NCBI GenBank assembly: GCA_045636425.1
Contig: JAZTXM010000003.1
Span: 4,903 to 68,902 of the forward strand
Source: Clostridia bacterium
GTDB lineage: Bacteria > Bacillota > Clostridia > UMGS1883
Reading direction: 5' to 3'
DNA: 64,000 bases
Positions 1 to 30,050 of the stretch are shown here, in pieces. Position 1 is the first letter of the stretch. Each line of letters begins with the position of its first letter. A program made the position numbers and the translations under genes. Below the pieces are notes generated by a model. That model ran no database searches. It saw only the letters and a program-made list of their open reading frames with translations, and had not been told where the DNA came from.

Positions 1-429
1 GCTCCCCGTCAGTATGCACTGACGCAGACTCATAAGCACCTTCCCGAGATGACAAAAATAACAGGACTTGAAAACGCTCCCGTATTTTGCCCCATTGTTT
101 CCGATTATTATAGCGGAATGGTTGTAACAGTGCCGATTTTCAAAAGCCAGCTTAATGATGGCTTTACGGCAGAGGACATTAAAAATGCCTATAAAGAAAA
201 GTATACCGGCGGAATTGTTACATACAATGATTCGATTTCCGAATCAGGGCTTATCAGTGCCAATGCACTTTCCTTCAATGATTCCATGCAGATAACAGTT
301 GAGGGAAATGATGAAAGAATTCTTCTTATTGCAAGGTACGATAATTTAGGTAAGGGTGCCTCAGGTGCCGCACTTGAATGTATGAATATTTCAATGGGGG
401 CTTCTCCCGCTGAAATGCTGGATATATGA
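1..429 (+). CDS. argC: N-acetyl-gamma-glutamyl-phosphate reductase, C-terminal part (5' end outside window)
   Basis: Frame 1 is open from base 1 to TGA 427-429. The C-terminal ...ARYDNLGKGASGAALECMNI... is ArgC-like. It is the first gene of an arg cluster. Confidence 0.85.
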   Translation, partial: APRQYALTQTHKHLPEMTKITGLENAPVFCPIVSDYYSGMVVTVPIFKSQLNDGFTAEDIKNAYKEKYTGGIVTYNDSISESGLISANALSFNDSMQITVEGNDERILLIARYDNLGKGASGAALECMNISMGASPAEMLDI

Positions 430-1667
430 AAGGAATGATACATATGTTTAAAATCATAGAGGGCGGCATTTGTGCTCCCAAGGGATTTTCCGCCAACGGT
501 ATTCATTGCGGAATCCGCAAAAACCGCACCAAGCGTGACATTGCACTTATTGTAAGTGATGTTCCTGCGGCAGCTGCGGCAACATATACAACAAATCTCG
601 TAAAGGGTGCTCCCCTTACCGTTACAAAGGACAATATCAAAAACGGTTACGCACAGGCTGTTATCTGTAACAGCGGTAATGCAAACACCTGCAATGCAGA
701 CGGCATTGAAATAGCACTGAAAATGTGCGGTCTTGTTGAAAAACATACCGATGTTAAGGCGGAGGATGTTATTGTAGCGTCAACAGGCGTTATCGGTCAG
801 CCTCTTGACATTACCCCCATATCGGACGGAATGGAGGAGCTTGTAAAGGGTCTTGGTAAAGATGCCGAGCATGCAAATTACACCTCCGAGGCAATTCTTA
901 CAACTGACCTTGTAAAAAAAGAGATTGCCGTAAGCTTCACCCTGGGCGGTAAGGAATGCACCATTGCAGGTATTGCAAAGGGAAGCGGTATGATCCATCC
1001 CAACATGGCCACCATGCTTGTGTTTATTACAACCGATGCCGCCATTTCTCCCAAAATGCTTCAGAGAGCGTTATCGGCAGATATAAAGAAAACCTTTAAT
1101 ATGATAAGCGTTGACGGCGATACATCAACAAATGATATGGTATCGGTTATGGCAAACGGCCTTGCGGGAAATGCTTTAATCGAAGAAGAAAACGAAGACT
1201 TTGAAACCTTTGCAAAAGCACTTAACACTGTTACAATCTACCTTTGCAAAATGATTGCAGGTGACGGTGAGGGTGCAACAAAGATGCTTGAATGCTCTGT
1301 TTCCGGTGCTAAGGATGAAAAATGTGCAAAGACAGTGGCAAAATCCGTTATCTGTTCATCGCTTCTTAAAGCGGCAATGTTCGGTGCCGACGCCAACTGG
1401 GGCAGGGTGCTTTGTGCAATAGGCTACAGCGGTGCAAACGTGGATGTAGATAAGATTGATGTGTCCTTTGCTTCAAAGGAAGGCACAATCAAGGTTTGCG
1501 AAAACGGAGCAGGCGTGAATTTTTCTGAAGAAATTGCAAAGAAAATATTGCTTGAAAAGGAAATTAATATTATAATAGATCTTAAAGACGGTGACGCACA
1601 GGCTACCGCATGGGGCTGTGACCTTACTTACGATTATGTAAAGATCAACGGCGATTATCGTACTTGA
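426..1667 (+). CDS. argJ: bifunctional ornithine acetyltransferase / N-acetylglutamate synthase
   Basis: KGSGMIHPNMATMLVFITTDA carries the ArgJ autoprocessing ATML site. ATGA overlap with argC. The alternative start ATG 444 has AAAGGAA 8 nt upstream. Confidence 0.9.
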   Translation: MKGMIHMFKIIEGGICAPKGFSANGIHCGIRKNRTKRDIALIVSDVPAAAAATYTTNLVKGAPLTVTKDNIKNGYAQAVICNSGNANTCNADGIEIALKMCGLVEKHTDVKAEDVIVASTGVIGQPLDITPISDGMEELVKGLGKDAEHANYTSEAILTTDLVKKEIAVSFTLGGKECTIAGIAKGSGMIHPNMATMLVFITTDAAISPKMLQRALSADIKKTFNMISVDGDTSTNDMVSVMANGLAGNALIEEENEDFETFAKALNTVTIYLCKMIAGDGEGATKMLECSVSGAKDEKCAKTVAKSVICSSLLKAAMFGADANWGRVLCAIGYSGANVDVDKIDVSFASKEGTIKVCENGAGVNFSEEIAKKILLEKEINIIIDLKDGDAQATAWGCDLTYDYVKINGDYRT

Positions 1668-1956: not shown

Positions 1957-2811
1957 ATGACTAACGCACAGCGCGCAGAAGTACTTACCCAGGCACTTCC
2001 TTATATACAAAAATACAACAACAAAATAATCGTTGTGAAATACGGCGGAAACGCTATGATTAACGATGAGCTTAAGGATGCCGTAATGGGTGACATTGTT
2101 CTTTTGTCCCTTATCGGTATTAAGGTTGTTCTCGTTCATGGAGGCGGTCCCGAAATCACACAGATGCTTAAGCAGGTTGGGAAGGAATCCCAGTTTGTTA
2201 ACGGCCTTCGTGTAACAGATAAGGAAACCGTGGATATTGTGCAAATGGTGCTTGCGGGAAAGGTTAATAAAAACCTTGTAAATCTTCTCCACCATAAGGG
2301 TGGCAATGCTATCGGTCTTTGCGGCATTGACGGTCATATGATTGAGGCAGAGGTTCTTAACCCTGAGCTTGGCTATGTCGGAGAAATCACCAAGGTGAAC
2401 GTACAGCCCATCACCGACCTTCTCGAAAAGGGCTACATACCTGTTATTTCCACCGTTGGTTGTGATAAGGATGGCAATGTGTATAACATCAACGCTGATA
2501 CTGCCGCATCCAAAATAGCAGGTATCTTAGGTGCTGAAAGCCTTATTTCCATGACAGACATCGAGGGTATTCTTCGTGATAAGGATGACCCCTCTACTCT
2601 CATTTCCAAAATTTGCGTGGAAGATGCCCCCAAGCTTGTCGAGGAAGGCGTTATCTCAGGCGGCATGATTCCCAAAGTGGAATGTTGTATTGACGCTATC
2701 AAAAGTGGCGTGAGAAAGGTATTTATAATTGACGGCAGAATCCCCCACTCCATACTTATCGAAACCTTGACCAATGAAGGTATCGGTACTATGTTTGTTC
2801 GCGGAGAATAA
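1957..2811 (+). CDS. argB: acetylglutamate kinase
   Basis: 284 aa with IVVKYGGNAM and VLVHGGGPEI amino-acid kinase motifs. GGAGG SD upstream. Arg cluster context. Confidence 0.92.
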   Translation: MTNAQRAEVLTQALPYIQKYNNKIIVVKYGGNAMINDELKDAVMGDIVLLSLIGIKVVLVHGGGPEITQMLKQVGKESQFVNGLRVTDKETVDIVQMVLAGKVNKNLVNLLHHKGGNAIGLCGIDGHMIEAEVLNPELGYVGEITKVNVQPITDLLEKGYIPVISTVGCDKDGNVYNINADTAASKIAGILGAESLISMTDIEGILRDKDDPSTLISKICVEDAPKLVEEGVISGGMIPKVECCIDAIKSGVRKVFIIDGRIPHSILIETLTNEGIGTMFVRGE

Positions 2812-2875: not shown

Positions 2876-4036
2876 ATGAACACATTTGAGAAAGACAAAC
2901 AGTTTGTCGCACCCACATATGGGCGTTTTCCTGTAGAAATTGTCGGTGGAAAGGGTGCTGTTTTAAAGGGTAGCGACGGAAAAGAATATATAGATTTGGG
3001 AAGCGGAATCGCAGTAAACACCTTCGGTTTTCGTGATGATGAATGGGTTAACGCAGTGAAAGCACAGCTTGACTCTTTTGCACACACTTCAAATCTTTAC
3101 TATACCTCCCCCTGTGCTGACCTTGCAAAGATGCTTTGCGAGAAAACTGGAATGAAGAATGTTTTCTATTCAAACTCAGGTGCGGAAGCAAATGAATGTG
3201 CAATCAAAGCCGCTCGCCGCTACGGCTCACTAAATAAGGGCGAGGATTATTATACAATCATTACACTGGAAAAAAGCTTCCACGGCAGAACTCACACAAC
3301 ACTTGCGGCAACAGGTCAGGAAAGCTTTCATAAAGACTTTCTCCCCCTTACCCCCGGTTTTGTGCATACTCCCCCGAATGATACAGAATCTCTTAGAAAA
3401 GCCGTGAAAGATAACAAGTGCTGTGCGATAATGATGGAAATTGTTCAGGGCGAGGGCGGTGTATGTGCCCTTGAAAAGGAATTTATTCTTGAAGCCGAGA
3501 AGCTTTGCCGTGAAAATGACCTTGTACTTATTATAGATGAGGTACAGGCAGGAAACGGCAGAACGGGTAAGCTTTACGCATATATGCACTACGGCATTAC
3601 TCCCGATGTAGTAACCACTGCAAAGGGACTGGGAGGCGGACTTCCCATCGGTGTAACAATGCTCGGAGAAAAGGTAAAGGATATTTTTGCTCCGGGGCTT
3701 AACGGCTCCACTTTTGGAGGAAACCCCGTTTGCTGCAGCGGTGCAATCAGTATTCTCTCAAGACTTACAGATGAGTTTTTGGAGGGAGTAACAGAAAAAG
3801 CTGAAATAATAAGAGAAACCTTAAGCGGAGCCGAAGGAATCGAAGATATTTCGGGACTTGGTCTTATGATAGGTATTAAAACAGTGAAAGAAGCAAAGGA
3901 AGTAGTAAATAAGTGCATCGAAAATGGCGTGCTTGTTCTTACCGCAAAGGATAAGGTAAGGCTTCTTCCCCCGCTTAATATAGATAATAATCTGCTTAGA
4001 AAAGCACTTGAAGTAATTAAGGAGGCATGTAAATAA
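2876..4036 (+). CDS. argD: acetylornithine aminotransferase
   Basis: 386 aa class-III aminotransferase with DEVQAGNGRTG and the PLP lysine in TTAKGLGGG. AAGGAG SD. Confidence 0.9.
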   Translation: MNTFEKDKQFVAPTYGRFPVEIVGGKGAVLKGSDGKEYIDLGSGIAVNTFGFRDDEWVNAVKAQLDSFAHTSNLYYTSPCADLAKMLCEKTGMKNVFYSNSGAEANECAIKAARRYGSLNKGEDYYTIITLEKSFHGRTHTTLAATGQESFHKDFLPLTPGFVHTPPNDTESLRKAVKDNKCCAIMMEIVQGEGGVCALEKEFILEAEKLCRENDLVLIIDEVQAGNGRTGKLYAYMHYGITPDVVTTAKGLGGGLPIGVTMLGEKVKDIFAPGLNGSTFGGNPVCCSGAISILSRLTDEFLEGVTEKAEIIRETLSGAEGIEDISGLGLMIGIKTVKEAKEVVNKCIENGVLVLTAKDKVRLLPPLNIDNNLLRKALEVIKEACK

Positions 4037-4938
4037 TGAAGCATTTATTAAAGCTGGGCGATCTTACAAAGGAAGAGATTGTAGAAATTCTCGACCTTGC
4101 GGATAAGCTTAAATATGAAAAAAGAAACGGAATTGAGCATCACTTGCTCAAGGGAAAGACACTGGGAATGATTTTCCAGAAGTCCTCCACCAGAACAAGA
4201 GTTTCCTTTGAGGTTGGTATGTTTGACCTTGGCGGAAGTGCACTTTTCCTCAGCCCCAGAGATTTGCAGATTGGCAGAGGTGAGGTTGTAGAGGATACTG
4301 CAAGAGTTCTTTCCAGATTCTTAGACGGAATTATGATCCGCACCTTTGAACAAAAAGAGGTTGAAGATTTTGCCTCCTACGGTGATATTCCGATTATTAA
4401 CGGACTTACAGACTACTGCCATCCCTGTCAGGTATTGGCTGACCTTATGACAATCCGTGAAAAGAAAGGAAATCTTGAAGGTCTTAAAATGTGCTTTGTT
4501 GGCGACGGTAATAATATGGCAAACTCCATTATCGTGGGATGCATCAAGATGGGTATGGAGGTTTCCATAGCTTGTCCCAAAGGTTATGAGCCTGACAGCG
4601 ATATTATGAAGTGGGCAAACGAAACAGGAAAGTTTACTTGCACAGAAGATGTAATGGAAGCGGCAAAGGGTGCAGATGCTCTCTATACAGACGTATGGGC
4701 TTCTATGGGACAGGAAGAAGAATTTAACGAAAGAGCAAAGGTATTCAAAAATTACCAGATTAATTCCGAGCTTATGAAGGTTGCAAATGAAGGTGCGATG
4801 GTGCTTCATTGTCTGCCTGCACACCGAGGCGAAGAAATCACGGCGGAGGTAATTGAACAGCATGCCGATGAAATTTTTGAAGAAGCCGAAAACAGACTTC
4901 ACGCACAGAAGGCTGTTATGGTTAAATTAATGGCATAA
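4036..4938 (+). CDS. argF: ornithine carbamoyltransferase
   Basis: 300 aa with the STRTRVSFE, HPCQ, SMG and HCLPAHRGEE motifs. TAATG junction with argD. Confidence 0.92.
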   Translation: MKHLLKLGDLTKEEIVEILDLADKLKYEKRNGIEHHLLKGKTLGMIFQKSSTRTRVSFEVGMFDLGGSALFLSPRDLQIGRGEVVEDTARVLSRFLDGIMIRTFEQKEVEDFASYGDIPIINGLTDYCHPCQVLADLMTIREKKGNLEGLKMCFVGDGNNMANSIIVGCIKMGMEVSIACPKGYEPDSDIMKWANETGKFTCTEDVMEAAKGADALYTDVWASMGQEEEFNERAKVFKNYQINSELMKVANEGAMVLHCLPAHRGEEITAEVIEQHADEIFEEAENRLHAQKAVMVKLMA

Positions 4939-4986: not shown

Positions 4987-6039
4987 ATGAAAGCATATTT
5001 GACTTTGGAAAACGGAAAGGTTTTCTCGGGAGAAGCATTCGGTGCAATATGCGACGAGGTTGGAGAAATAGTATTTTCCACTTCTATGGGCAGTTACATT
5101 GAAGCACTTACAGACCCCTGCTATTACGGACAGATTCTTGTCCAGACATATCCGCTTATCGGTAACTACGGTATGATTTACTCCGATATGGAAAGCAGCA
5201 AGATTCACGCAAAGGGTTACATTGTGCGAGAAATTTGCGATACACCTTCAAACTTCCGCTCGGAGGGACTCTTGGAAGATTTCCTCAAAGAGCAGGGTGT
5301 TATGGGTATTTCGGGAATTGATACACGTGAAATCACAAAAATCATTCGCGAAGAAGGCACTATGACAGCACGCATCTCAACTAAAGAGCCTTCAGGCGAA
5401 AAGCCCCAGATGCCCGACATTAAAAACGCGGTTAAAGAAGTCAGTGCAAAGGAAAAACACACTGTAGGCGATGCAGATGTGAAAATTGCACTTCTCGACC
5501 TGGGAACAACTAAAAGTGCCGTTAAAACACTCGCAAATAAAGGTGCTATGGTAACAGTTCTTCCCTGTGACACAAAAGCGGACGAGTTTCTTTCCTACGA
5601 TGCGATTTATCTTTCCGATGGTCCGGGAAACCCCGAGGACTATAGTGAAATCGTAGAAGTAATAAAAGAAGTATTCGGCAAAAAGCCTATTTTTGCCACG
5701 GGACTTGGTCATCAGCTTCTTGCTATGGCAAACGGTGCAAAAATTCACAAGCTTCCTTATGGTCACCGCGGTGCAAATCAGCCTGTTAAGCAGCTTGAAA
5801 GCGGCAGAGTTTATATCACTGCACAAAACCACAGCTATGCAGTAGTTTCCGATACTCTCCCCTCTTACGCACAGGTAACTTATGAAAACCTTAACGACAA
5901 GAGCTGTGAGGGTATTGAGTACAAAGACAAAAATGCTGTTTCAATTCAATTCCGTCCCATAGAGGGAGACGGTCCTAACGAAACAGACTTCTTATACAGA
6001 AAATTCTTTGAAATGATTGGAGGAAGCAAGAATGCCTAA
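4987..6039 (+). CDS. carA: carbamoyl-phosphate synthase small-subunit homolog lacking the glutaminase catalytic triad
   Basis: 350 aa. The CarA N-domain (LTDPCYYGQILVQTYPLIGNYG) and GATase fold are retained. The nucleophile motif reads FATGLGHQ instead of FGICLGHQ, and HPE reads RPI. Overlaps carB by 8 nt. Confidence 0.85.
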   Translation: MKAYLTLENGKVFSGEAFGAICDEVGEIVFSTSMGSYIEALTDPCYYGQILVQTYPLIGNYGMIYSDMESSKIHAKGYIVREICDTPSNFRSEGLLEDFLKEQGVMGISGIDTREITKIIREEGTMTARISTKEPSGEKPQMPDIKNAVKEVSAKEKHTVGDADVKIALLDLGTTKSAVKTLANKGAMVTVLPCDTKADEFLSYDAIYLSDGPGNPEDYSEIVEVIKEVFGKKPIFATGLGHQLLAMANGAKIHKLPYGHRGANQPVKQLESGRVYITAQNHSYAVVSDTLPSYAQVTYENLNDKSCEGIEYKDKNAVSIQFRPIEGDGPNETDFLYRKFFEMIGGSKNA

Positions 6040-9000
6040 GAATAAAGACATCAAAAAGGTACTGGTAATCGGCTCGGGTCCTATTGTAATCGGGCAGGCT
6101 GCCGAATTTGACTATGCAGGTGCACAGGCTTGCCGAGTACTCCGCGATGAGGGCGTAAATATCGTCCTTGTAAACTCCAACCCCGCTACAATTATGACAG
6201 ATAAGGCTCTTGCAGATGAAATTTATCTTGAACCTCTTACAACAGATACAATCAAGAGAATCATTGAAAAGGAAAAGCCCGACAGTCTTCTTGCATCGCT
6301 TGGCGGACAGACAGGTCTTACCATTGCAATGCAGCTTGATAAGGAAGGCTATCTTGACAAAATGGGCGTTAAGCTTATCGGCACAAATGCCGAAGCTATC
6401 GACCGTGCAGAGGATAGAGAGCTTTTCAAGGAAACGATGCTCAAAATCGGGCAGGGTTGTATCCCCTCCGACATCGCTACAACAGTTGACGAATGTCTTA
6501 GCATTGCAGAAAAAATTGGCTACCCCGTAATTGTACGCCCTGCATTCACCCTTGGCGGTGCAGGTGGCGGCGTTGCGTATGACGCTGATACTCTTGCAAA
6601 GATTGCAAATAATGGTCTTACTCTTTCCCCCATTACTCAGGTGCTTATTGAAAAGTACATCTACGGATGGAAAGAAGTAGAATTTGAAGTTATGCGTGAC
6701 CACGCCGGTAACGCTATTACAATCTGTAGCATGGAAAATGTGGATCCCGTTGGCATCCACACCGGTGACAGTATAGTTGTTGCTCCCGCGGCAACTCTTT
6801 CCGATAAAGAATATTCAATGCTCAGAAAAGCGGCTCTTGATATTATCACAGAGCTTAAGATTGAGGGCGGATGTAACTGTCAGTTTGCACTTAATCCCGA
6901 CAGCTTTGAGTATGCGGTAATCGAGGTTAACCCCAGAGTTTCCCGTTCTTCCGCACTTGCAAGTAAGGCTACGGGTTACCCCATTGCAAAGGTTACCACA
7001 AAGATTGCCCTCGGCTATACGCTTGATGAAATCAAAAATGATGTTACTGGTGTAACATATGCTTGCTTTGAGCCTGCGGTTGACTACATGGTAGTTAAAT
7101 TCCCCAAATGGCCCTTTGACAAATTCGTATATGCCGACAGAAAGCTCGGCACACAGATGAAGGCTACGGGCGAGGTTATGTCTATCGGCAATTCCTTTGA
7201 ATCGGCACTTATGAAGGCGGTAAGAGGTGCAGAGCTTAAGACCGAAACTCTCCGCCATAAGGAAGTTCAAGCTATCGAGGATATTGAAAAGAAGCTTTAT
7301 GACCTTGACGACCTTAGAATTTTCACAGTTTATGAAGCTCTTGTAAGAGGAATTACTGTAGACAGAATCAACGAAATCACAAGAATTGATAAATGGTTCC
7401 TTTCCAAGATTAAAAATATTGTGGACTATGAAAAGAGCATTGTGGGCAATCTTACTCCCGAGCTTTACGAAAAAGGTAAGAAGCTTGGCTTTACCGATAA
7501 GATTCTGGAAGAAATCAGCGGTGAAAAAGTTCCCTGCCATAAAAATTGCGTTTACAAAATGGTTGATACCTGTGGCGGCGAATTTGCAGCTAAAACTCCC
7601 TACTTCTACTCCACTTATGACAATGAGTGCGAAGCAAGGGCCGTTGCTACAAACAACAAAAAGGTAATCGTTCTCGGCTCCGGTCCTATCAGAATCGGTC
7701 AGGGTATCGAATTTGACTACTCCTCCGTTCACTGTGTATGGGCACTTAAGGAAATGGGCTACGAGGTAATTATTATTAATAACAACCCCGAAACCGTTTC
7801 CACCGACTTTGATACAGCGGACAGGCTTTATTTTGAGCCTCTTACTCCCGAAGATGTAATGAACGTAATCGAGGTTGAAAAGCCCGAGGGCGTTGTGGTT
7901 GCATTCGGCGGTCAGACTGCAATCAAGCTGGTTAAATTCCTTGACGAAAGCGGAATTAAAATCTTAGGTACTTCTGCAAAGAGCATTGATATGGCAGAGG
8001 ATCGTGAGCAGTTTGATGCACTCCTTGAAAAGTTCAACATTAAGCGTCCCAGCGGTCTTACCGTTATGACACGCACTGAAGCACTCGAGGCGGCAGAAAA
8101 GCTTGGCTACCCCGTACTTCTGCGTCCCTCATACGTAATCGGCGGTCAGAATATGACGATTGCTTACAAGGAAGAAGACGTAGAACGCTATATGGATATC
8201 ATTCTTTCTCAGAAGATTGAAAACCCTGTACTTGTGGATAAGTATATGATGGGTAAGGAGCTTGAGGTTGACGTAATCAGCGACGGCAAAGACGTTCTTA
8301 TCCCCGGTATTATGGAGCACGTTGAACGTGCAGGTGTACACAGCGGTGACTCTATCGCAGTATATCCTCCCTTTAACGTGACGGATAAGATGCTTGATAA
8401 GATTGTTGACTGCTCAATAAAGCTTGCTCTTTCCCTTAAGACACAGGGACTTATAAATATTCAGTACCTTGTATATGAAAACGAACTGTATGTAATCGAG
8501 GTTAACCCCAGAGCATCAAGAACAGTTCCCTATATCAGTAAGGTAACGGGCATTCCTATGGTAGACCTTGCTACACAGGTTATGCAGGGTACTCCCCTTC
8601 TTGACCTTGGCTACGGCAGCGGTCTTTACAAGATGCCCCCCTACTATGCAGTTAAGGTTCCTGTGTTCTCATTTGAGAAGCTTTCGGGTATCAACTCTAT
8701 CTTAGGACCTGAAATGAAGTCCACAGGTGAAGTTTTGGGTATTGGTAAAACGCTTAACGAGGCACTTTACAAAGGTCTTGTTTCCGCAGGCTTCAATCTT
8801 GAAAGCCGTGGCGGAGTATATATCAGCGTTGACTCAAAGGATAAGTACGACCTTATTGAGCTTGCAAAGAAGCTTTACGATGCAGGTCTTGAAATCTACG
8901 CAGATGAAATGAATGCTCTCATTATAGATTCATTGGGTATCCCCGTGGAAACAGTTGAGGGAGAAAAGATTTATTCACTCCTTGAAAGCGAAAAGATTGG

Positions 9001-10036
9001 TTATATAATTCACACCAATTCAGGCAGACCTAAGGAAATTGAGAAGTTTATAAGACTGCACCGCAGAGCACTTCAGTTAAGCATTGCATGTCTTACATCG
9101 CTTGATACTGCAAATGCACTTGCAGATATTCTTCTCAGCCGATTCAATCAGTATAATACAGAGCTTACGGATATTGCTAAGCTCCGCACAGAAAAGCTGA
9201 ACATTCCCTTTATCAAAATGCAGGGAACCGGCGATGACTATATATTCATCAATAACTTTGATGGAAACATTGCATTCCCCGAAGCACTTGCAATTGTATT
9301 CTCCGACCGCCGCAGAGGTATCGGTGCAGACGGACTTGTTCTTATCGAAAAATCCGATGTGGCAGATGCGAAAATGCGTATATTCAACACTGACGGCAGT
9401 GAGGGCAAAATGGCAGGTAACGCTATCCGTTGCGTAGGTAAATACCTTTGGGATAACGGCTATGTAACACACCGCCATATAGCAATTGAAACTGCAAGCG
9501 GTATAAGAAAGCTTACGCTTCACCTCTTCGACCACAAGGTTACAAGCGTAACCGTCCAGATGGGACAGGCACAGTTTAATCCCGCTCAGATTCCCGTGGA
9601 TATGCCCGGAGATAAAGTAATTAACGAAAAGGTTACAATCGGCGGTAAGAAGTACGATATTACGTGCGTATCTATCGGAAATCCCCACTGTGTTGTTATC
9701 TGCGATAATGTATATAACATTGATGTGGAAACAATCGGTCCGAGGTTTGAAAATGCACCTATATTCCCCGAAAGAATCAATACGGAATTTGTTAAGATTA
9801 TCGACAAGCGTACCATCAGAATGAGAGTATGGGAACGCGGTAACGGTGAAACTCCCGCCTGCGGTACAGGTGCTTGTGCGGCGGCTATTGCGGCAGTTGA
9901 AAACGGCTACTGTGAGAAGGACACCGACATTTCCGTAAGAGTTGAGGGCGGAGAGCTTATCGTACGCTATACAGACGAGGGAGTATTCTTAACCGGTGAT
10001 GCGGAGAAGGTATTTGAGGGAATTTATCAGTATTAA
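6032..10036 (+). CDS. carB: carbamoyl-phosphate synthase large subunit fused in frame to a C-terminal DapF-like (diaminopimelate epimerase fold) domain
   Basis: Start ATG 6032 has GGAGG 9 nt upstream. About 1040 aa of CarB (two ATP-grasp halves plus an MGS-like domain), then a linker. From nt 9197 a DapF-like domain follows (KMQGTGDDYIFIN ... GNPHCVV ... ERGNGETPACGTGACAAA). No stop or SD lies between the two parts. Confidence 0.88.
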   Translation: MPKNKDIKKVLVIGSGPIVIGQAAEFDYAGAQACRVLRDEGVNIVLVNSNPATIMTDKALADEIYLEPLTTDTIKRIIEKEKPDSLLASLGGQTGLTIAMQLDKEGYLDKMGVKLIGTNAEAIDRAEDRELFKETMLKIGQGCIPSDIATTVDECLSIAEKIGYPVIVRPAFTLGGAGGGVAYDADTLAKIANNGLTLSPITQVLIEKYIYGWKEVEFEVMRDHAGNAITICSMENVDPVGIHTGDSIVVAPAATLSDKEYSMLRKAALDIITELKIEGGCNCQFALNPDSFEYAVIEVNPRVSRSSALASKATGYPIAKVTTKIALGYTLDEIKNDVTGVTYACFEPAVDYMVVKFPKWPFDKFVYADRKLGTQMKATGEVMSIGNSFESALMKAVRGAELKTETLRHKEVQAIEDIEKKLYDLDDLRIFTVYEALVRGITVDRINEITRIDKWFLSKIKNIVDYEKSIVGNLTPELYEKGKKLGFTDKILEEISGEKVPCHKNCVYKMVDTCGGEFAAKTPYFYSTYDNECEARAVATNNKKVIVLGSGPIRIGQGIEFDYSSVHCVWALKEMGYEVIIINNNPETVSTDFDTADRLYFEPLTPEDVMNVIEVEKPEGVVVAFGGQTAIKLVKFLDESGIKILGTSAKSIDMAEDREQFDALLEKFNIKRPSGLTVMTRTEALEAAEKLGYPVLLRPSYVIGGQNMTIAYKEEDVERYMDIILSQKIENPVLVDKYMMGKELEVDVISDGKDVLIPGIMEHVERAGVHSGDSIAVYPPFNVTDKMLDKIVDCSIKLALSLKTQGLINIQYLVYENELYVIEVNPRASRTVPYISKVTGIPMVDLATQVMQGTPLLDLGYGSGLYKMPPYYAVKVPVFSFEKLSGINSILGPEMKSTGEVLGIGKTLNEALYKGLVSAGFNLESRGGVYISVDSKDKYDLIELAKKLYDAGLEIYADEMNALIIDSLGIPVETVEGEKIYSLLESEKIGYIIHTNSGRPKEIEKFIRLHRRALQLSIACLTSLDTANALADILLSRFNQYNTELTDIAKLRTEKLNIPFIKMQGTGDDYIFINNFDGNIAFPEALAIVFSDRRRGIGADGLVLIEKSDVADAKMRIFNTDGSEGKMAGNAIRCVGKYLWDNGYVTHRHIAIETASGIRKLTLHLFDHKVTSVTVQMGQAQFNPAQIPVDMPGDKVINEKVTIGGKKYDITCVSIGNPHCVVICDNVYNIDVETIGPRFENAPIFPERINTEFVKIIDKRTIRMRVWERGNGETPACGTGACAAAIAAVENGYCEKDTDISVRVEGGELIVRYTDEGVFLTGDAEKVFEGIYQY

Positions 10037-10395: not shown

Positions 10396-10437
10396 GTTTT
10401 CATTGAAAGAATGAAAAGAAAAAAGGAGATTTTAAAA

Positions 10438-11658
10438 ATGGATAAGAAGGATATTAAAAAAGTAGTTCTCGCTTACAGCGGAGGACTTGACACATCAATC
10501 ATTATTCCGTGGCTTAAGGAAAACTACAACAACTGTGAGGTTATCGCCGTTGCAGGTAATGTAGGACAGAATGACGAGCTTGAAGGTCTTGAAGAAAAGG
10601 CTATAAAGACAGGGGCTTCCAAGCTTTACGTTCTTGACCTTACAGAGGAATATGTAGATGAATACATCATCCCCACTATGAAAGCAGGTGCAATTTACGA
10701 GGAATATCTTCTCGGAACAAGCCATGCTCGTCCCTGTATTGCAAAGGGTCTTGTAGATATTGCAATCAAGGAAAATGCAGATGCTATCTGCCATGGTTGC
10801 ACAGGTAAGGGTAACGACCAGGTGCGTTTTGAGCTTACAATAAAGCACTTTGCTCCTAATATGCCCATTATTGCCCCCTGGCGTATTTGGGATATTAAAT
10901 CCCGTGAAGAGGAAATTGAATATGCAGAGGCACACAATGTTCCTCTTAAGATTAACCGCGAAACAAACTACTCAAAGGATAAGAACCTCTGGCATCTTTC
11001 TCACGAGGGTCTTGACCTTGAAGATACAGGCAACGAGCCTCAGTACGAAAAGCCGGGCTTCCTTGAAATGGGCGTATCTCCCATCATGGCACCCGATGAG
11101 CCTACATATATCACTCTTGACTTTGAGCAGGGCATTCCTGTAGCATTCAATGACAAGAAGATGAGTGCAAAGGAAATCATTCTTGCCCTTAATGAAGTTG
11201 GCGGAAAGAATGGTATCGGACTTCTCGACATCGTTGAAAATCGTCTTGTAGGTATGAAATGCCGCGGCGTTTACGAAACTCCCGGCGGTGCAATCCTTTA
11301 CAAGGCACACAGCGTTCTTGAATCCATCTGCCTTGACAAGATGACACTTCACGAAAAGCAGAAGCTTTCTATCACATTTGCAGAGCTTGTTTATAACGGT
11401 CAGTGGTTTACTCCTCTCCGTGAGGCTCTCAGTGCATTTGTTGATAAGACTCAGGAAAAGGTTACAGGTAAGGTACGCCTTAAGCTTTACAAGGGTAATA
11501 TGATTAATGCAGGCGTATGGAGCGATTACAGCCTTTATTCAGAAGAAATCGCAACCTTTGGCGAAAGCGATTACAACCAGAAGGATTCCGAAGGCTTCAT
11601 TAACCTTTACGGTCTTCCCATTGCAGTACAGGCTATGGTTGATGCAAAGAATAAATAA
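10438..11658 (+). CDS. argG: argininosuccinate synthase
   Basis: [10 protein letters not shown]-type ATP-PPase motif. Start ATG 10438 has AAGGAG 8 nt upstream. The ORF-track start at 10411 lacks an SD. Confidence 0.92.
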
Positions 11659-11659
11659 C

Positions 11660-11900
11660 GGACGTATTAAAATAGCACTGAACGCATAAAGCATGAAGGC
11701 TCATATCATGGCAATTAGAAAGCGTAGATATTTGAGTTTAATCCCGTTTGTCGGGAAAAAATTCGCTCCACGAATTTTATTGACTTATCTGCTTTATGCT
11801 ACGAACAAACTTCACCTCTCGCTGTATACACATACAGCTTCGGGTAACCCACGGCAAGCCGTGGTTCAGTTTGTCCGTTCCGCACTATTTTACTACATCC
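11660..11900 (+). repeat. structured interspersed element, copy 3 (diverged arms)
   Basis: Arms GGACGTATTAAAATAGCACTGAAC / GTTCCGCACTATTTTACTACATCC still pair. Inner helix 11684-11693/11790-11799. The 3' domain is conserved. Begins 1 nt after the argG stop. Confidence 0.8.
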
Positions 11901-11904
11901 TCAC

Positions 11905-11951
11905 AAAAAAGTATGAAACTGTAGTAAAGAAATTTACTACAGTTTCATACT
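11905..11951 (-). terminator. 19-bp perfect hairpin; intrinsic-terminator-like only when read on the minus strand
   Basis: AGTATGAAACTGTAGTAAA-GAAA-TTTACTACAGTTTCATACT (11910-11951). An A-run lies at 11905-11910 on the + strand, which is a U-run after the stem on the - strand. No T-run follows on the + strand. Confidence 0.4.
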
Positions 11952-11974
11952 TAACAGACAATGGAGGTAAAAAT

Positions 11975-13345
11975 ATGGACAAGATGTGGGCAGGGCGTTT
12001 TTCAAAAGCCCTGGATAAAGAAGCTGATGATTTTAATTCATCCATACATTTTGACTGCAAAATGTACAGGCAGGATATAGAGGGCTCTATTGCCCATGCG
12101 ACTATGCTTGCCGAATGTAACATTATTTCCAAAAGCGACAGTGAAACAATAATTGCAGGACTTAAAGAAATTCTTGCTGACCTTGAGGGCGGAGCACTCG
12201 GCTTTGACTTTGATGCGGAAGATATACATATGTTTGTGGAGGCCGAGCTTACACGCCGTATTGGAGATGTGGGAAAAAGGCTTCATACCGCAAGAAGCCG
12301 TAACGACCAGGTGGCCTTAGATATCCGCCTTTACATGCGTGACGAGGCAAATGAGGTTATTTCCCTTATCCGGAAGCTTCTTGGTGCTATTCTTCTTCAG
12401 GCAGAAGCTAACAAGGAAACAATTCTCCCCGGCTACACGCATCTTCAGCGTGCACAGCCCATTATGTTTGCACATCATCTTTGTGCATATGCAATGATGT
12501 TTATCCGCGATATCGGAAGAATCGAGGACGCACTTAAGAGAATGAACCTCTCCCCCTTAGGCTCATGTGCCCTTGCGGGAACAACCTATGAAACAAACCG
12601 CGAAAGGACGGCAGAGCTTCTTGGCTTTGACGGAATTACCTTAAACAGCATCGACGGCGTTTCCGACCGTGACTTCTGCGTTGAGCTGATGAGTGCATTC
12701 GCACTTGTGATGACGCATCTTTCAAGATTCTCCGAGGAGGTTATTCTCTGGTCATCATGGGAATTCAAATTCGTGGAGCTTGACGATTCCTATACAACAG
12801 GCTCCTCCATTATGCCCCAGAAGAAGAATCCCGATATGGCAGAGCTTGTACGCGGTAAGACGGGCAGAGTATATGGCGATTTGATTGCAATGCTGACAAT
12901 ACTAAAGGGTATTCCCCTGGCATACAACAAGGATATGCAGGAGGATAAGGAAGCAATCTTTGACAGCGTGGAAACAGTTAAAAAGTGCCTCAGCATTTTT
13001 GCTCCCATGATTGCTACCATGTCTGTGCGTGCGGACAAAATGTACGCCGCAGCAGGTGAAGGCTTTATCAATGCCACAGACCTTGCCGACTATCTTGTAA
13101 AGAAAGGGCAGCCCTTCCGCAGTGCGTATAAGACAGTAGGGCAGATTGTGGGAAAGTGCGTCGCGGAAAAGAAAACTCTTGAAACGCTTACCCTCCCCGA
13201 ATATAAGGAATTTGATGAGCTTTTTGAGGAAGATTTATATGCAGAAATCGACCTTAAAAACTGCGTGGAAAAACGTATTTCCGCAGGTGGAACTTCTGTA
13301 GCATCAATTAATACACAGATTGAATATATAAAAAAATTTGTATAA
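11975..13345 (+). CDS. argH: argininosuccinate lyase
   Basis: MDKMWAGRFSK... is a typical ArgH N-terminus. GGAGGT SD at 11963-11968. 456 aa. The ORF-track start at 11693 reads through repeat copy 3. Confidence 0.92.
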   Translation: MDKMWAGRFSKALDKEADDFNSSIHFDCKMYRQDIEGSIAHATMLAECNIISKSDSETIIAGLKEILADLEGGALGFDFDAEDIHMFVEAELTRRIGDVGKRLHTARSRNDQVALDIRLYMRDEANEVISLIRKLLGAILLQAEANKETILPGYTHLQRAQPIMFAHHLCAYAMMFIRDIGRIEDALKRMNLSPLGSCALAGTTYETNRERTAELLGFDGITLNSIDGVSDRDFCVELMSAFALVMTHLSRFSEEVILWSSWEFKFVELDDSYTTGSSIMPQKKNPDMAELVRGKTGRVYGDLIAMLTILKGIPLAYNKDMQEDKEAIFDSVETVKKCLSIFAPMIATMSVRADKMYAAAGEGFINATDLADYLVKKGQPFRSAYKTVGQIVGKCVAEKKTLETLTLPEYKEFDELFEEDLYAEIDLKNCVEKRISAGGTSVASINTQIEYIKKFV

Positions 13346-13386: not shown

Positions 13387-13950
13387 TTACAACACACCAT
13401 CGTATATGTGTTTTCGCTTTTTAAAGTATTTGAAATTTATAATGAACAGCAGAGAATGAACTACAATATGAATTGGAACTATAATATCTATTCCGCCGAT
13501 TGTGCTATATGTGGGTTCGTACACCATATTGATAAAATACATCATATTGGTCGTGATAAAGAGAAAATGGGTAGCATAGGTGAAACGAGGACCTATCTTT
13601 TTATAGGTAAGAAGTCCGTATATTGCCACAATTGAAGCAATCGCTTCAATCACTCCGCCAAAGCCCAAGAAGTTTTCCATAGACTCGATATATGAACCGA
13701 GATACCCGTACTTTCTCATATAATAAGCGGTTTCAAGATTCATCACCTTAATTCCGTCTATTGCCACCCACAGTGCGTCTATGGCAAGAAGAACACAGAA
13801 TATCTTTGCCCATAGTGTCGGAAGTGCAGGCTTTGAGAAATAACTCTCCACATTCAGTTCTGCTTCTAAATCTGCATTACACATTGGGCAGGCAGAAAGA
13901 TTACTGTTAAAAATCCCTGCACCGCATTTAGGACAAAATCGCATAATCAA
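13387..13950 (-). CDS. zinc-ribbon membrane protein, function unknown
   Basis: N-terminal CPKCG...CPMC zinc ribbon followed by several hydrophobic helices. Confidence 0.6.
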   Translation of the reverse strand: MIMRFCPKCGAGIFNSNLSACPMCNADLEAELNVESYFSKPALPTLWAKIFCVLLAIDALWVAIDGIKVMNLETAYYMRKYGYLGSYIESMENFLGFGGVIEAIASIVAIYGLLTYKKIGPRFTYATHFLFITTNMMYFINMVYEPTYSTIGGIDIIVPIHIVVHSLLFIINFKYFKKRKHIYDGVL

Positions 13951-14381
13951 TTCCCCCTGATAATTCTTTTCAGTTTTCTTATCACACGACCGGGAAAGCT
14001 TTTAGCTCTTCTCCATTTCAGGCTCTTAACGGTCTTTTCTGCGTATTTTAAGTATTCCCTATCCTCTATAGAAACGTATTTATCCCCCTGATAAAAGCCC
14101 TCAAGAACGCCTACAATATCGCTTTCACGCACATCTTTTTCTAAGGCTATACGATTATCACCGCAAATGATATATCCGTTCTTTTTTACCTTGACAATTC
14201 TGTGCATTGTGTAATGCCCCTGCTTTCTGTAGACGGGAATGTCATACTTTTTAAGAGGAAATTTGGGAGGAACTATTACCACCCTATCCCGTCCCTCTAC
14301 AAGCATAGGATTCATACTGTTCCCTTTGGTGAGGGTTACATATATTCCGTTCTGTTTTAAGCTTTCTTCAAGTCCTATCAT
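13947..14381 (-). CDS. S24/S26-family (LexA / signal-peptidase-like) serine peptidase homolog
   Basis: GNSMNPML Ser motif and HRIVKV Lys motif. 4-nt overlap with the downstream gene. Confidence 0.6.
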   Translation of the reverse strand: MIGLEESLKQNGIYVTLTKGNSMNPMLVEGRDRVVIVPPKFPLKKYDIPVYRKQGHYTMHRIVKVKKNGYIICGDNRIALEKDVRESDIVGVLEGFYQGDKYVSIEDREYLKYAEKTVKSLKWRRAKSFPGRVIRKLKRIIRGN

Positions 14382-15164
14382 TTATTCCAACTCCAATAAC
14401 TTTGCAGCATTAGTATAGAATATTTTCTCTTTTTCTTCTTCTGTTAGGTCAAGTGCTTCAATTCTGTCCGCTTCCGCCCTGAGAGAAACAGCAGGGTAAT
14501 CTGTGCCAAAAAGCACCTTATCAGCACCGTGTGCACGAATAAGCTCCACCATTTTCTCAGGAGATACCTCCCACATAGTGCTGGAGGTGTCAAACCACAC
14601 ATTTTTTCCCACAAGGCTTTTTGCATCGGTATCCCACACGCTGTAGCCGCCCATATGTGCCGCCACAAATTTGTGTTTGGGGAAAATATCCAGTACTCTT
14701 GAAAGGCGGACAGGATTTGAAAAATCCAAATTCTTATCCCCCACGTGGAGGACTATGGGATAATCCTCCCCTATCTGTTCATACATATAGAGTGCTTTAT
14801 CATCGTCAATATTAAACTGCTGAAAATCGGGGTGGAATTTAAACCCACGAAGCCCGTGGTTTTTTATACGCTGAATTTCATATGCTACATCTTCAAAATC
14901 AGGATGCACACTGCCGAAAACTATAAATCTTTCATCTCTTAAATCAAAGAGAAAGTCATTATTTATCGTTACCTGGGTAGGCTTTGTGGGGGTGGAAAAA
15001 ATAACGGCTTTGTAAAATCCCGATCTATCCATTTCCGCTTTCATATCGGTAAATGTCCCCAAACATTCCCATGGCATACCATAGTGTTTTTCAAGGTTTG
15101 CTATTGCAAGATGTGCAATCTTGGGGTTAAATATATGTGCATGAAAATCAATTATTTTTCTCAT
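14382..15164 (-). CDS. amidohydrolase-family metal-dependent hydrolase
   Basis: MRKIIDFHAHIF... HxH motif of TIM-barrel amidohydrolases. I prefer start ATG 15164. The ORF-track start at 15206 lies inside a hairpin. Confidence 0.7.
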   Translation of the reverse strand: MRKIIDFHAHIFNPKIAHLAIANLEKHYGMPWECLGTFTDMKAEMDRSGFYKAVIFSTPTKPTQVTINNDFLFDLRDERFIVFGSVHPDFEDVAYEIQRIKNHGLRGFKFHPDFQQFNIDDDKALYMYEQIGEDYPIVLHVGDKNLDFSNPVRLSRVLDIFPKHKFVAAHMGGYSVWDTDAKSLVGKNVWFDTSSTMWEVSPEKMVELIRAHGADKVLFGTDYPAVSLRAEADRIEALDLTEEEKEKIFYTNAAKLLELE

Positions 15165-15180
15165 CTTAAAACTTCTTTCT

Positions 15181-15217
15181 AAAAATATTGTTGCAGCGAA
15201 ATTCACTGCAACAATAT
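15181..15217 (-). terminator. hairpin plus U-run after the HIT gene
   Basis: ATATTGTTGCAG-9 nt-CTGCAACAATAT, with TTTTT following on the minus strand. Confidence 0.5.
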
Positions 15218-22890: not shown

Positions 22891-22927
22891 AATATCGACA
22901 CGCGATGTTTTTTTGTTAATATTCGAC

Positions 22928-22977
22928 AAAAAAAATACTGTAGAATGCTTAAATTTGAGCATTTTACAGTATTTTTT
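22928..22977 (+). terminator. rho-independent terminator after ftsK
   Basis: AAAAATACTGTAGAATGCT-8 nt-AGCATTTTACAGTATTTTTT. Confidence 0.75.
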
Positions 22978-22978
22978 C

Positions 22979-23007
22979 TTGACATCTGAAATTTTAAGTG
23001 TTATAGT
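22979..23007 (+). promoter_or_regulatory. sigma-A type promoter of sigH
   Basis: TTGACA (22979-22984), 17-nt spacer, TATAGT (23002-23007). Confidence 0.6.
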
Positions 23008-23026
23008 AGTAATATGGAGGCGTTAT

Positions 23027-23656
23027 ATGGGTAATTTTAATTCACTAAATAACTTTGCCTCATTCAGTGATGAAAAGTTGGCTGTTCTTGCCGGGCAGGG
23101 AAATGACCGAGCGCTTGATTATTTACTCAGCAAGTATCGTGTTTTTGTTCGCAATAAATCTCTTTCTTATTTTATTGCCGGTGCTGATAGGGATGACATT
23201 ATTCAAGAGGGTATGATTGGTCTGTTTAAAGCTGTCAGGGATTTTTCTCCTGAGCGCGGTGTATCTTTTAAGACATTTGCCGACCTTTGTGTGACAAGGC
23301 AGATTATAACCGCGGTGAAAAACGCCAGCAGACAAAAGCATGCACCTCTTAATTTTTATGTTTCACTGAACAAACCGCTTTCAGATGATGAAAACGATTC
23401 TACTTTGGAACATCTTTTGGGACATGCTGAAAATCTTAATCCCGAAGAAATAGTAATTAAAAAAGAAGATGCAGATGCATTAGGCTCAGATATGAATCGT
23501 ATATTATCTCAGTTTGAAGCTTCTGTGCTGTCGCTTTATCTCAAGGGTCATAGCTATGCGGACATATCCAAAATTGTCTGCAAGGATGTAAAGGCTATAG
23601 ACAATGCTTTGCAGCGAATAAAGAAGAAGTTTGAAAAGCTTTCATCTAAAGAATAG
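23027..23656 (+). CDS. sigH: RNA polymerase sporulation sigma factor SigH
   Basis: ADRDDIIQEGMIGLFKAVRDF...FADLCVTRQIITAVKNASRQKHAPLN matches the Spo0H signature. GGAGG SD. The ORF-track start at 22913 lies upstream of the promoter. Confidence 0.85.
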   Translation: MGNFNSLNNFASFSDEKLAVLAGQGNDRALDYLLSKYRVFVRNKSLSYFIAGADRDDIIQEGMIGLFKAVRDFSPERGVSFKTFADLCVTRQIITAVKNASRQKHAPLNFYVSLNKPLSDDENDSTLEHLLGHAENLNPEEIVIKKEDADALGSDMNRILSQFEASVLSLYLKGHSYADISKIVCKDVKAIDNALQRIKKKFEKLSSKE

Positions 23657-28288: not shown

Positions 28289-28306
28289 TTTTCAAACCTT
28301 CCTTCC

Positions 28307-28909
28307 TCAGAATGACATGCCCTGAAATCCCATAAACGCAATTGCAAGGAGCGATGCACTTATAAGTGCAATCGGAAAGCCCGTGAGTGCTTTGGGAATA
28401 TCTGAGCTTTCAAGACGTTCTCTTACACCTGCAAAGAGGACTATTGCCAAAAGGAAGCCAAGACCTGCACTAAATCCGTTTACAACCGATTCAATCAGAG
28501 TATATGTTCCCACAGGGTTAATTACGGAAGCCGTGCGCACATTAAGAAGTGCAACACCGAGCACCGCACAGTTTGTAGTGATGAGCGGAAGGTATATACC
28601 CAAGGCACTGTACAGTGACGGGATTGACTTTTGCAAAAACATCTCAACAAACTGAACCAACGCTGCAATAATTACGATAAAAGCAATCGTCTGCATATAT
28701 TCCATGTCCAAAGGAACAAGAATAAACTTCTGACAAGCCCATGTAAGCATTGAGGCAAGCGTCATTACAAAGGTTACTGCCATACCCATTCCGAGTGCCG
28801 TATCAAGCTTTTTTGAAACACCCAGGAACGGACAAATTCCGTAAAACTTAACCAATACAAAGTTCTGTACAAATATAGAGGTTAATGCAATTCCTATTAA
28901 TGCTGTCAT
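28307..28909 (-). CDS. rnfA: Rnf complex subunit A
   Basis: 200-aa polytopic membrane protein with a typical RnfA N-terminus (FVQNFVL) and operon position. Confidence 0.88.
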   Translation of the reverse strand: MTALIGIALTSIFVQNFVLVKFYGICPFLGVSKKLDTALGMGMAVTFVMTLASMLTWACQKFILVPLDMEYMQTIAFIVIIAALVQFVEMFLQKSIPSLYSALGIYLPLITTNCAVLGVALLNVRTASVINPVGTYTLIESVVNGFSAGLGFLLAIVLFAGVRERLESSDIPKALTGFPIALISASLLAIAFMGFQGMSF

Positions 28910-30041: not shown

Positions 30042-30050
30042 ACTCGCACC

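Follow-up and report, generated by a model that had tools for sequence, protein, structure and literature searches.

The 64-kb stretch analyzed here (positions 4,903 to 68,902 of contig JAZTXM010000003.1, from a Clostridia bacterium of the UMGS1883 lineage; the whole stretch is called "the window" below) contains an arginine operon whose profile matches give the order argJ-argB-argD-argF-carA-carB::dapF-argG-argH, so that carAB is embedded among arginine biosynthesis genes. The subject of this report is carB::dapF, a fusion gene that encodes the large subunit of carbamoyl-phosphate synthase (CPS) followed by a domain with the fold of diaminopimelate (DAP) epimerase, DapF. In that domain, alanine is found in place of the first of the two catalytic cysteines. 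The same operon order is found in loci L002, L004, L008, L009, L010, L040 and L052, where L-numbers designate scanned genomic loci and, below, P-numbers designate database proteins. Coordinates of the relevant features are collected in Table 1.

The start of carB::dapF overlaps the 3' end of carA, and its probable start codon is ATG 6032, with GGAGG at 6019-6023. The open reading frame (ORF) delimited mechanically extends from TTG 6017 to 10036 with its 1339 codons intact, and residue numbers given below count from 6017. Its translation includes ...RIFNTDGSEGKMAGNAIRCVGKY..., and coordinates were checked base by base. The CarB part is complete (NF003671, 1454.6 bits with a cut-off of 599; TIGR01369, 1425 bits with a cut-off of 1027; amino acids (aa) 6-1039) and contains two ATP-grasp halves, an oligomerisation domain and an MGS-like allosteric domain, as defined by Pfam. 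When 51 fusions were compared, T-E-L was found to be invariant in the linker that joins the two parts, with V-D-I and the arginine of xMR nearly so.

Table 1. Features of the arginine operon and of the carB::dapF fusion in the window
Feature	Position	Strand	Basis
argJ	426-1667	+	NCBIfam equivalog TIGR00120, 471 bits
argB	1957-2811	+	NCBIfam equivalog TIGR00761, 271 bits
argD	2876-4036	+	NCBIfam equivalog TIGR00707, 423 bits
argF	4036-4938	+	NCBIfam equivalog TIGR00658, 439 bits
carA, CPS small subunit, full length	4987-6039	+	PRK12838, 401 bits (cut-off 221)
carB::dapF fusion gene	6032-10036	+	CarB NF003671 aa 6-1039; DapF TIGR00652 aa 1064-1337
CarB allosteric (MGS-like) domain, about aa 937-1039	8825-9133	+	PF02142 aa 946-1027; alignment to E. 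coli CarB 773-1051
Conserved linker between CarB and DapF-like domain, ..SRFNQYNTELTDIAKLRTEKLN..	9134-9193	+	comparison of 51 fusions
DapF-like domain, aa 1060-1339, 280 residues	9194-10033	+	complete two-lobe DAP-epimerase fold
DAP-epimerase signature NTDGSEGKMAGNAIR	9386-9430	+	N at 9386-9388, R at 9428-9430
Ala1133 (GCA) in place of catalytic Cys73	9413-9415	+	alignment to solved DapFs
Asp1073 (GAT) in place of Asn11	9233-9235	+	alignment
Cys1282 (TGC), equivalent of Cys217, second catalytic thiol, in PACGTGACAAA	9860-9862	+	
Distal-DAP binding residues Asn1222 (N157), Asn1255 (N190), Glu1273 (E208), Arg1274 (R209)	9680-9838	+	
argG	10411-11658	+	NF001770, 569 bits
argH (ORF)	11693-13345	+	TIGR00838, 634 bits

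The DapF part is also full length: TIGR00652 scores 276-281 bits (cut-off 115) and covers profile positions 2-269 of 270, and PF01678 matches twice. An AlphaFold2 model of the domain, with a predicted local distance difference test score (pLDDT) of 89.9, has the ligand-bound DapF 9mro_A as its best match in the PDB (root-mean-square deviation 1.5 A, target-normalised template modelling score 0.93), and the best-scoring solved relative is Bacillus anthracis DapF 2otn (E 2.8e-70). In phmmer alignments, Ala1133 falls under the catalytic cysteine of 2otn (GKSCGNGLRC), 9mro (PEMCGNGIRC) and 8qzy (VEQCGNGARC), and it does likewise when E. coli DapF is used. An earlier note on this DNA, made from the letters alone, had reported an alanine in the column of the first catalytic cysteine, and both the codon coordinates and the alignment to solved DapFs confirm it; of the checks then proposed, profile and structural matches yield a full DapF fold, and sequence alignment puts alanine in the active-site column. 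The second catalytic cysteine, which had been described as present, is indeed found. Judged by its active site, the domain possesses the second catalytic cysteine of DapF (Cys217) and lacks the first (Cys73).

Published mutants agree with the view that a DAP epimerase cannot work with one thiol: a Cys-to-Ser DapF shows less than 0.1% activity (PMC8225329), and no activity is detectable in a C73A/C217A double mutant (PMC6061791). Epimerisation by the domain with a single thiol is very unlikely.

One detail of the earlier note needs correction. GCA had been described as two substitutions away from TGC or TGT, but it differs from both at all three bases; two is the minimum number of amino-acid-changing steps between TGC/TGT and GCA (TGC>GGC>GCC, or via AGC/TCC). 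Codons found at position 73 in relatives include the single-step intermediates GGC (Gly), AGC (Ser) and TTC (Phe), and alanine is encoded by all four of its codons, a spectrum that fits an old change along TGC>GGC>GCC.

No other cysteine or serine occupies the catalytic position in the window protein, where residue 76 (Ala1136, 9422-9424) is alanine, and its Cys79 and Cys160 are common to ordinary DapFs as well. A catalytic residue migrated to position 76, which lies one turn of the helix beyond position 73, was considered and rejected: the residue is Ala in the window protein and Asn or Val elsewhere, and thus no general replacement exists. Position 76 is often Ser, Cys or Asn in fusions without Cys73, and Gly or Ala in standalone DapFs and in fusions with Cys73. 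Such changes may reshape the pocket, and they are too variable for a relocated catalytic residue.

A genomic scan with one genome per species yielded 80 loci, with 63 full-length CarB::DapF ORFs (1300-1460 aa) and 11 standalone dapF genes. Together with the window, the scan provides 64 full-length fusions, in which position 73 is Ala in 32 (the window included), Cys in 18, Gly in 11, Ser in 2 and Phe in 1. Among the 120 best database matches, nearly all of which are fragments of the fusion, Ala was found in 91, Cys in 19, Gly in 9 and Ser in 1. Both counts bear out the conservation of the alanine in orthologous fusions, which the earlier note had proposed to examine. Fusions that retain Cys73 will be called Cys-type, and those that lack it, Cys-less. 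Cys73 is kept in 11/11 standalone dapF genes of the scanned loci, and an exhaustive search found both cysteines in 120/120 complete standalone DapFs (50%-identity representatives). Each match without Cys73 in the representative search was either a fusion or an N-terminally truncated fragment.

Parsimony on a neighbour-joining tree of the whole protein gives at least five changes between Cys and non-Cys, an approximate count because the tree is based on distances. In a distance tree of the DapF domain rooted with E. coli, standalone proteins branch off at the base, followed by a grade of Cys-type fusions, with Cys-less fusions in derived positions. This order indicates a fusion that initially had an intact active site, and loss of Cys73 afterwards. 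The loss occurred repeatedly, and in the fused state only.

The hosts are mostly Oscillospiraceae, Ruminococcaceae, Christensenellaceae and unclassified Clostridia metagenome-assembled genomes (MAGs), with some Treponema and one Selenomonadaceae MAG. The gut MAGs outside the Clostridia that carry the fusion, mostly of the Ala73 type, are those of spirochaetes (L030, L050, L051, L053, L056, L062, L074 and L075, Treponema/Spirochaetaceae) and one of the Negativicutes (L041, Selenomonadaceae). The existence of the fusion in spirochaete and Negativicutes gut MAGs implies horizontal transfer of the whole gene. Among the 80 loci, which are locus stretches and not whole genomes, no assembly was found to pair the fusion with a standalone dapF.

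Certain database entries deserve comment. Many are exactly 449 or 501 aa long (e.g., P0007, P0009 and P0018) and begin at conserved CarB methionines (MKSTGEV.., MVDLA..). That they represent a family of short proteins was discarded, as the genomic loci show ORFs of 1300-1460 aa, and they can be interpreted as truncated gene calls, possibly caused by contig breaks inside carB. P0124 and P0188 are more degenerate, with the motifs NTAANGVHG and EIAANAMR; Gly74 is lost too, as is Arg78 in P0124, and both retain ERG...CG(T/S)G with Cys217. P0125 (512 aa) combines an N-terminal ornithine carbamoyltransferase (ArgF) domain, the end of the CarB allosteric domain and a Gly73 DapF-like domain; it may have arisen by a large internal deletion from argF to carB, or else be an assembly chimera. 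In P0184, P0187, P0189 and P0270 (about 666-692 aa), a Cys-type DapF follows an N-terminal stretch of low complexity (about 400 aa), which in P0187 contains a partial CPSase_L_D2 remnant. These four would illustrate the opposite outcome, decay of the CarB half with the epimerase kept. Lastly, locus L065 (8862-14410, a Ruminococcaceae MAG) carries an intact carA, an overlapping stop/start, a standalone Cys-type dapF and then pyrG, nadE and dapL. No carB is found in the L065 locus, which could have undergone in-frame loss of the CarB part from an ancestral fusion.

The alanine codon of the window is not a sequencing error, because the same GCA codon is found in L001, a contig from an independent MAG whose identity over the region is 92%. 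When the DapF domain is compared with that of L001, the ratio of non-synonymous to synonymous substitution rates (dN/dS) is 0.067, with dS 0.84, and the first 44 codons compared (9050-9181), which include part of the linker, show zero amino-acid changes. The divergence of the DapF domain relative to that of the CarB core is 1.42 in Cys-less fusions versus 1.56 in Cys-type fusions. General relaxation of the domain after loss of the cysteine is ruled out by these ratios and by the dN/dS value: the DapF-like domain is under strong purifying selection and is not a decaying relic. An artefact has a practically negligible probability, whether due to an error of sequencing or assembly or to decay of a pseudogene. 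Nothing speaks in its favor other than an in-frame stop within the fusion of a relative, L081; against it stand the GCA codon of the independent MAG, the alanine of the closest database proteins, the intact frame and the low dN/dS. The stop of L081 (1600-2200, 72% identical in the domain) is a TGA in the allosteric domain, NLESKT*VYISVD, which splits the fusion into two called genes, and may reflect either a pseudogene or a sequencing error. Two apparent standalone Cys-less DapFs were also rejected: P0057 (272 aa) is in reality the gene call downstream of the in-frame stop of L081, and P0126 begins with the fusion linker.

The residues that contact the ligand were examined next to those that surround Cys73. 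As relayed in a passage of PMC8225329 that cites Pillai et al. 2006, the reacting carboxylate of DAP is held by G74, N75, G218 and S219, its reacting alpha-amino group is hydrogen-bonded by N11, the distal amine is held by E208 (and Q44), and the distal carboxylate by N64, N157, N190 and R209. The window domain keeps 9/10 contacts among N11, N64, G74, N75, N157, N190, E208, R209, G218 and S219: N11 is Asp, and S219 is Thr, as in Firmicute DapFs. Firmicute DapFs generally have Gly in place of Q44. Across 102 Cys-less sequences, N64, G74, N190, E208, R209, G218 and C217 are invariant, N75 is conserved in 100 and N157 in 99, and position 219 is always T or S; genomic Cys-less fusions show the same pattern with few exceptions. 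Cys217 is invariant in 121/121 aligned fusion sequences. Replacement of N11 by Asp is found in 56/102 Cys-less sequences and in no Cys-type sequence; such a change would add a salt bridge to the ligand ammonium and strengthen its binding.

Positions that flank the contacts behave in a different manner. In proteins with Cys73, fused or not, Y15 and M62 are invariant and M155 and S211 nearly so (E. coli numbering). These four residues are replaced in older Cys-less clades (the window has F, I, I and N, respectively) and are mostly still present in lineages with recent loss of Cys73. The pattern is that of an apparently dismantled catalytic apparatus around Cys73, with preservation of the binding pocket and the Cys217 side. 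Loss of one cysteine would also prevent formation of the Cys73-Cys217 disulfide of oxidised DapF structures (5h2g among the structural matches), an effect that, speculatively, might be relevant to a regulatory module.

The two types of fusion also differ in their genomic surroundings. The neighborhood of standalone dapF in these bacteria is (purA)-(glnA)-dapF-pyrG-(nadE)-dapL, and Cys-type fusions hold the same place (glnA-carA-carB::dapF-pyrG/nadE/dapL). When dapL orthologues were called at 57-71% identity to a TIGR03542-positive DapL, the gene was found downstream within about 2 kb in 8/17 Cys-type fusions and in 5/11 standalone dapF loci; among Cys-less fusions, dapL was found within 10 kb in 1/46. 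By contrast, the fusion is immediately preceded by arginine genes of the same strand in the window and in 19 Cys-less loci, and this is so in no Cys-type locus. By genomic association, the window gene does not belong to the DAP/lysine pathway: profile scans detected no dap or lys genes among the scanned ORFs of the 64-kb window, and tblastn searches of the window, with the domain or E. coli DapF as query, matched the fused copy alone, with no second dapF. This split provides independent evidence that Cys-type fusions contain a real pathway epimerase while the Cys-less domain has left the DAP pathway. Cys-type fusions are probably true bifunctional enzymes, and the ancestral state was a Cys-containing fusion in a glnA-carA-carB::dapF-pyrG/nadE-dapL neighborhood, the domain being presumably the pathway epimerase.

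CarA, the other accessory module of the window CPS, is also altered. The columns of its catalytic triad, which we take to correspond to Cys269, His353 and Glu355 in E. coli, are occupied by Gly239 (5701-5703) instead of Cys, Arg323 (5953-5955) instead of His and Ile325 (5959-5961) instead of Glu; the motifs read FATGLGHQ...IQFRPIEG in the window and GICLGHQ...QFHPE in relatives, and the protein does not qualify as part of a glutamine-hydrolysing CPS. Alignment with 54 CarA proteins of related loci hence upholds, for the window, the earlier description of CarA as triad-less. The C/H/E triad is kept in 44/54 related proteins and shows a Cys-to-Gly change in 10/54, which correspond to about nine independent events; loss of the nucleophile is always Cys-to-Gly, and the His/Glu motif is usually degraded too. 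Besides the window, triad-less CarA is encoded in L010, L028, L031, L033, L036, L043, L055, L057 and L075. The state of the CarA triad shows no association with that of Cys73, as triad-less CarA accompanies 7/39 Cys-less and 3/15 Cys-type fusions. The proposal that both accessory modules are disabled yet conserved in length stands for the window; as a linked package it does not, since the losses are independent events across the family.

Because the CarA triad is missing, the window CPS is predicted to use free ammonia, and is probably ammonia-dependent. Recurrence of triad loss suggests repeated shifts to ammonia-dependent CPS in gut anaerobes. In loci L011 (5937-10981) and L032 (5982-10987), argF is directly followed by a carB::dapF gene of the Gly73 type with no carA between, and the small subunit may have been either lost from the operon or moved elsewhere.

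The allosteric domain of CarB also deviates from that of E. coli. The changes are T974D, T977N, K993 deleted, N1015H, T1017N, E892V and Y1040C, and E783, D791 and T1042 are kept. T974, T977, K993, N1015 and T1017 are presumably nucleotide-effector contacts in E. coli CarB. The YATxGTA motif is kept in most related fusions and reads YADEMNA in the window. Changes at these putative effector positions, together with N11D, would be in line with a ligand-binding module, without proving it.

On these grounds, we give slightly better than an even chance to the interpretation that the domain is a non-epimerase pseudoenzyme, a regulatory or structural module that binds a ligand and forms part of an arginine-specific CPS. 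Conversion of LL-DAP into meso-DAP would have been lost because the general base Cys73 is gone. The DapF fold would be kept, a DAP-like L-alpha-amino acid would still be bound in the cleft between the two lobes, and the domain would be retained as a working part of the CPS encoded in the arginine operon. Its most likely role would be in regulation or assembly, as a module that responds to a ligand and sits immediately after the CarB allosteric domain. Binding may close the two lobes, as it does in DapF, and closure may be passed via the short conserved linker to the allosteric domain, thereby tuning the supply of carbamoyl phosphate for arginine; a variant of the same interpretation is that the domain might be a ligand-stabilised assembly element. 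A ligand-binding module is the best explanation because conservation is strong, the pocket is complete and a highly conserved linker attaches the domain right behind the allosteric domain.

The putative ligand is probably LL- or meso-DAP. Arginine-pathway compounds (citrulline, arginine, ornithine) are speculative candidates, citrulline and arginine being considered because they have the same L-amino-acid head and a three-carbon spacer. A more specific version would make the domain a sensor of diamino acids with allosteric control over an arginine-specific CPS that uses ammonia, its lobes closing on LL-/meso-DAP or on isosteric citrulline or arginine. This version is offered tentatively, as a possibility with the balance of probability against it.

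Several considerations weigh against a regulatory or structural pseudoenzyme. About half of the Cys-less fusions with visible flanks lie outside arginine operons. Cys217 is 100% conserved while position 73 tolerates A, G, S and F; as a pure binding role has no obvious need for Cys217, there is room for residual chemistry. The domain may have to supply meso-DAP if the genomes lack another epimerase (dapF or the pyridoxal phosphate-dependent dapF2) or ddh. Furthermore, we know of no established physiological reason for DAP to regulate an arginine-specific CPS.

Residual chemistry might take the form of a one-base enzyme in which Cys217 alone deprotonates the alpha-carbon, leading to alpha-proton exchange, beta-elimination/dehydration or isomerisation. 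In its favor, no Cys-less sequence departs from Cys217 or from the N-terminus of its helix (ACGTG), whereas position 73 varies among A, G, S and F, and one-residue relatives of the fold are found among the structural matches: trans-3-hydroxy-L-proline dehydratase (6r76, 4k7g), PhzF (1u1w) and methylitaconate isomerase (3g7k). In 2000, Koo, Blanchard and co-workers reportedly found that single Cys-to-Ala DapF mutants still eliminate hydrogen fluoride from 3-fluoro-DAP, which favors this possibility. However, if the pocket is unchanged from that of DapF, the natural ligand should be DAP, which has no leaving group for elimination. Besides, the Cys-less clades have gained no conserved acid/base or polar residue (position 76 may be S, C, N, A or V, and only about half have Asp11), and location in an arginine operon suggests no need for such a reaction. 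We consider a one-base enzyme unlikely. The earlier note had left the choice between a ligand-binding pseudoenzyme and one-base chemistry, which is still what the evidence allows; pocket conservation, purifying selection and the shift in genomic context now favor the former.

Two other explanations concern the extremes of full activity and no ligand at all. Persistence of DAP epimerase activity would require that water in the cavity left by the Cys-to-Ala/Gly change, or another group, gives the second proton, and that a slow enzyme is enough. In its favor, the DAP-binding constellation has been kept along with one catalytic thiol, and no second dapF exists in the 64-kb window; moreover, the flux required may be small, given that an E. 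coli strain without dapF shows normal growth, for which the low-level conversion that other enzymes provide is enough (bioRxiv 10.1101/2024.10.14.618325). Nonetheless, the residual activity of the Cys-to-Ser mutant is below 0.1%, and neither Ala nor Gly can donate a proton. Functional dapF is marked in relatives by linkage to dapL, which Cys-less fusions have lost; the surroundings of position 73 are remodelled, and at least five independent losses argue that the activity was dispensable, all of which makes a persisting epimerase improbable. As for a purely structural element, on which CPS folding or oligomerisation would depend without ligand or signalling, the very conserved linker and the intrinsic dimerisation of DapF, known in E. 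coli (PMC6061791), are in its favor, and a fusion born from accidental adjacency of carB and dapF could become structurally entrenched. A scaffold of that sort fits poorly with the fact that the buried contacts N64, N157, N190, E208 and R209, as well as Cys217, are essentially unchanged over about 50% sequence divergence while neighboring second-shell positions do change, and we regard it as improbable.

The remainder of the window is of interest for the biology of the host. Scanned ORFs elsewhere in it are ordinary chromosomal genes of a spore-forming Clostridia member and include alaS, uppP, ftsK, sigH, the rnf complex, tyrS, capsule genes, cwlD, pdaB, rodA, ATP-binding cassette (ABC) exporters, nadE, topB, ylqF and lepB. 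The minus strand carries an rnf operon at 26679-32376, in which rnfC, D, E, A and B were identified, and which adjoins a gene for a CPBP-type intramembrane protease/permease. Together with sigH (22913-23656), cwlD (42610-43338) and pdaB (43335-44090), it indicates a spore-forming anaerobe that uses Rnf. Two ORFs (187 and 274 aa) found between argH and alaS (13387-15206, minus strand) have no NCBIfam match.

Literature searches for a CarB::DapF fusion and for DapF pseudoenzymes found nothing relevant. The family would offer a natural case of conversion of an enzyme into a pseudoenzyme with three stages extant: standalone DapF, bifunctional CarB::DapF and Cys-less CarB::DapF in arginine operons. 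There is a practical side as well, since automated annotation names such proteins "diaminopimelate epimerase, partial" or "carbamoyl-phosphate synthase large subunit". As TIGR00652 scores far above its cut-off in a protein without the catalytic cysteine, metabolic reconstructions may wrongly credit DapF activity. The error may extend to lysine and meso-DAP synthesis in gut Oscillospiraceae, Ruminococcaceae, Christensenellaceae and Treponema MAGs, and triad-less forms may be wrongly credited with a glutamine-dependent CPS. Regulation of CPS by the domain, if real, would add a novel allosteric input to the synthesis of carbamoyl phosphate and would connect the DAP/lysine pathway with that of arginine in an unexpected way. 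Were it a sensor, it would be a bacterial counterpart of the CPS1/N-acetylglutamate switch, with a fused enzyme recycled as receptor, and would couple the status of cell-wall and lysine precursors to arginine synthesis in gut Clostridia.

Comparison with known systems places the window domain closest to DapF itself (EC 5.1.1.7; e.g., B. anthracis 2OTN and Haemophilus influenzae 1GQZ/2GKE), with which it shares the two-lobe fold, nine of the ten DAP contacts, Cys217 and the distal-site residues that impose the L-configuration. The differences are that Cys73 is Ala, Asn11 is Asp, and Y15, M62, M155 and S211 are changed in the window, and that the domain is fused to the CarB C-terminus and encoded in an arginine operon, not beside dapL. 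Cys-type fusions of Oscillospiraceae and Ruminococcaceae (e.g., L015, L019, L028, L046 and L068) have the same architecture and linker, and their DapF domains are 54-61% identical to that of the window; unlike the latter, they retain Cys73, Y15, M62, M155 and S211.

Human CPS1 has a dead glutaminase domain and an activator site in its C-terminal domain, and is ammonia-dependent (PMC4655335). Both CPS1 (PDB 5DOU) and the window CPS contain a glutaminase-like module without its catalytic cysteine, and CPS1 is regulated at its C-terminal MGS-like domain. In CPS1, however, the change is Cys-to-Ser within a fused domain, and N-acetylglutamate is bound in the MGS-like domain itself, whereas the window CPS has CarA as a separate subunit, a Cys-to-Gly change and an extra DapF-derived domain. 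The resemblance is convergent. A precedent for a DapF fold that acts on a partner by contact and not by catalysis is E. coli DapF, a protein activator of RppH (PMC6061791); the structure of that complex (PDB 6D13) is among both the sequence and the structural matches of the window domain. Unlike the window domain, E. coli DapF is an active, unfused epimerase, and its partner is an RNA pyrophosphohydrolase.

One-residue enzymes of the same superfold (trans-3-hydroxy-L-proline dehydratase, PhzF and PrpF/methylitaconate isomerase) provide a precedent for the acquisition of a new reaction upon loss of a base. Their identity to the window domain is 13-16% (Foldseek) and their pockets are remodelled, while that of the window is still the pocket of DapF. 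The window domain falls outside the one-thiol dehydratase type, as position 73 is Ala and not the Thr of a Cys/Thr pair, and its pocket residues are those of DapF. The nearest parallel to its active site is found in engineered one-thiol DapFs (C73S 2Q9H and C217S 2Q9J of H. influenzae, and the Cys-to-Ser mutant of Mycobacterium tuberculosis). The active site of the window is that of a laboratory C73 mutant, the fold is retained alike, and 2q9h is among the structural matches of the window model. The difference is that the one-thiol state of the window is natural, ancient and selected, and has arisen several times, in CarB fusions only.

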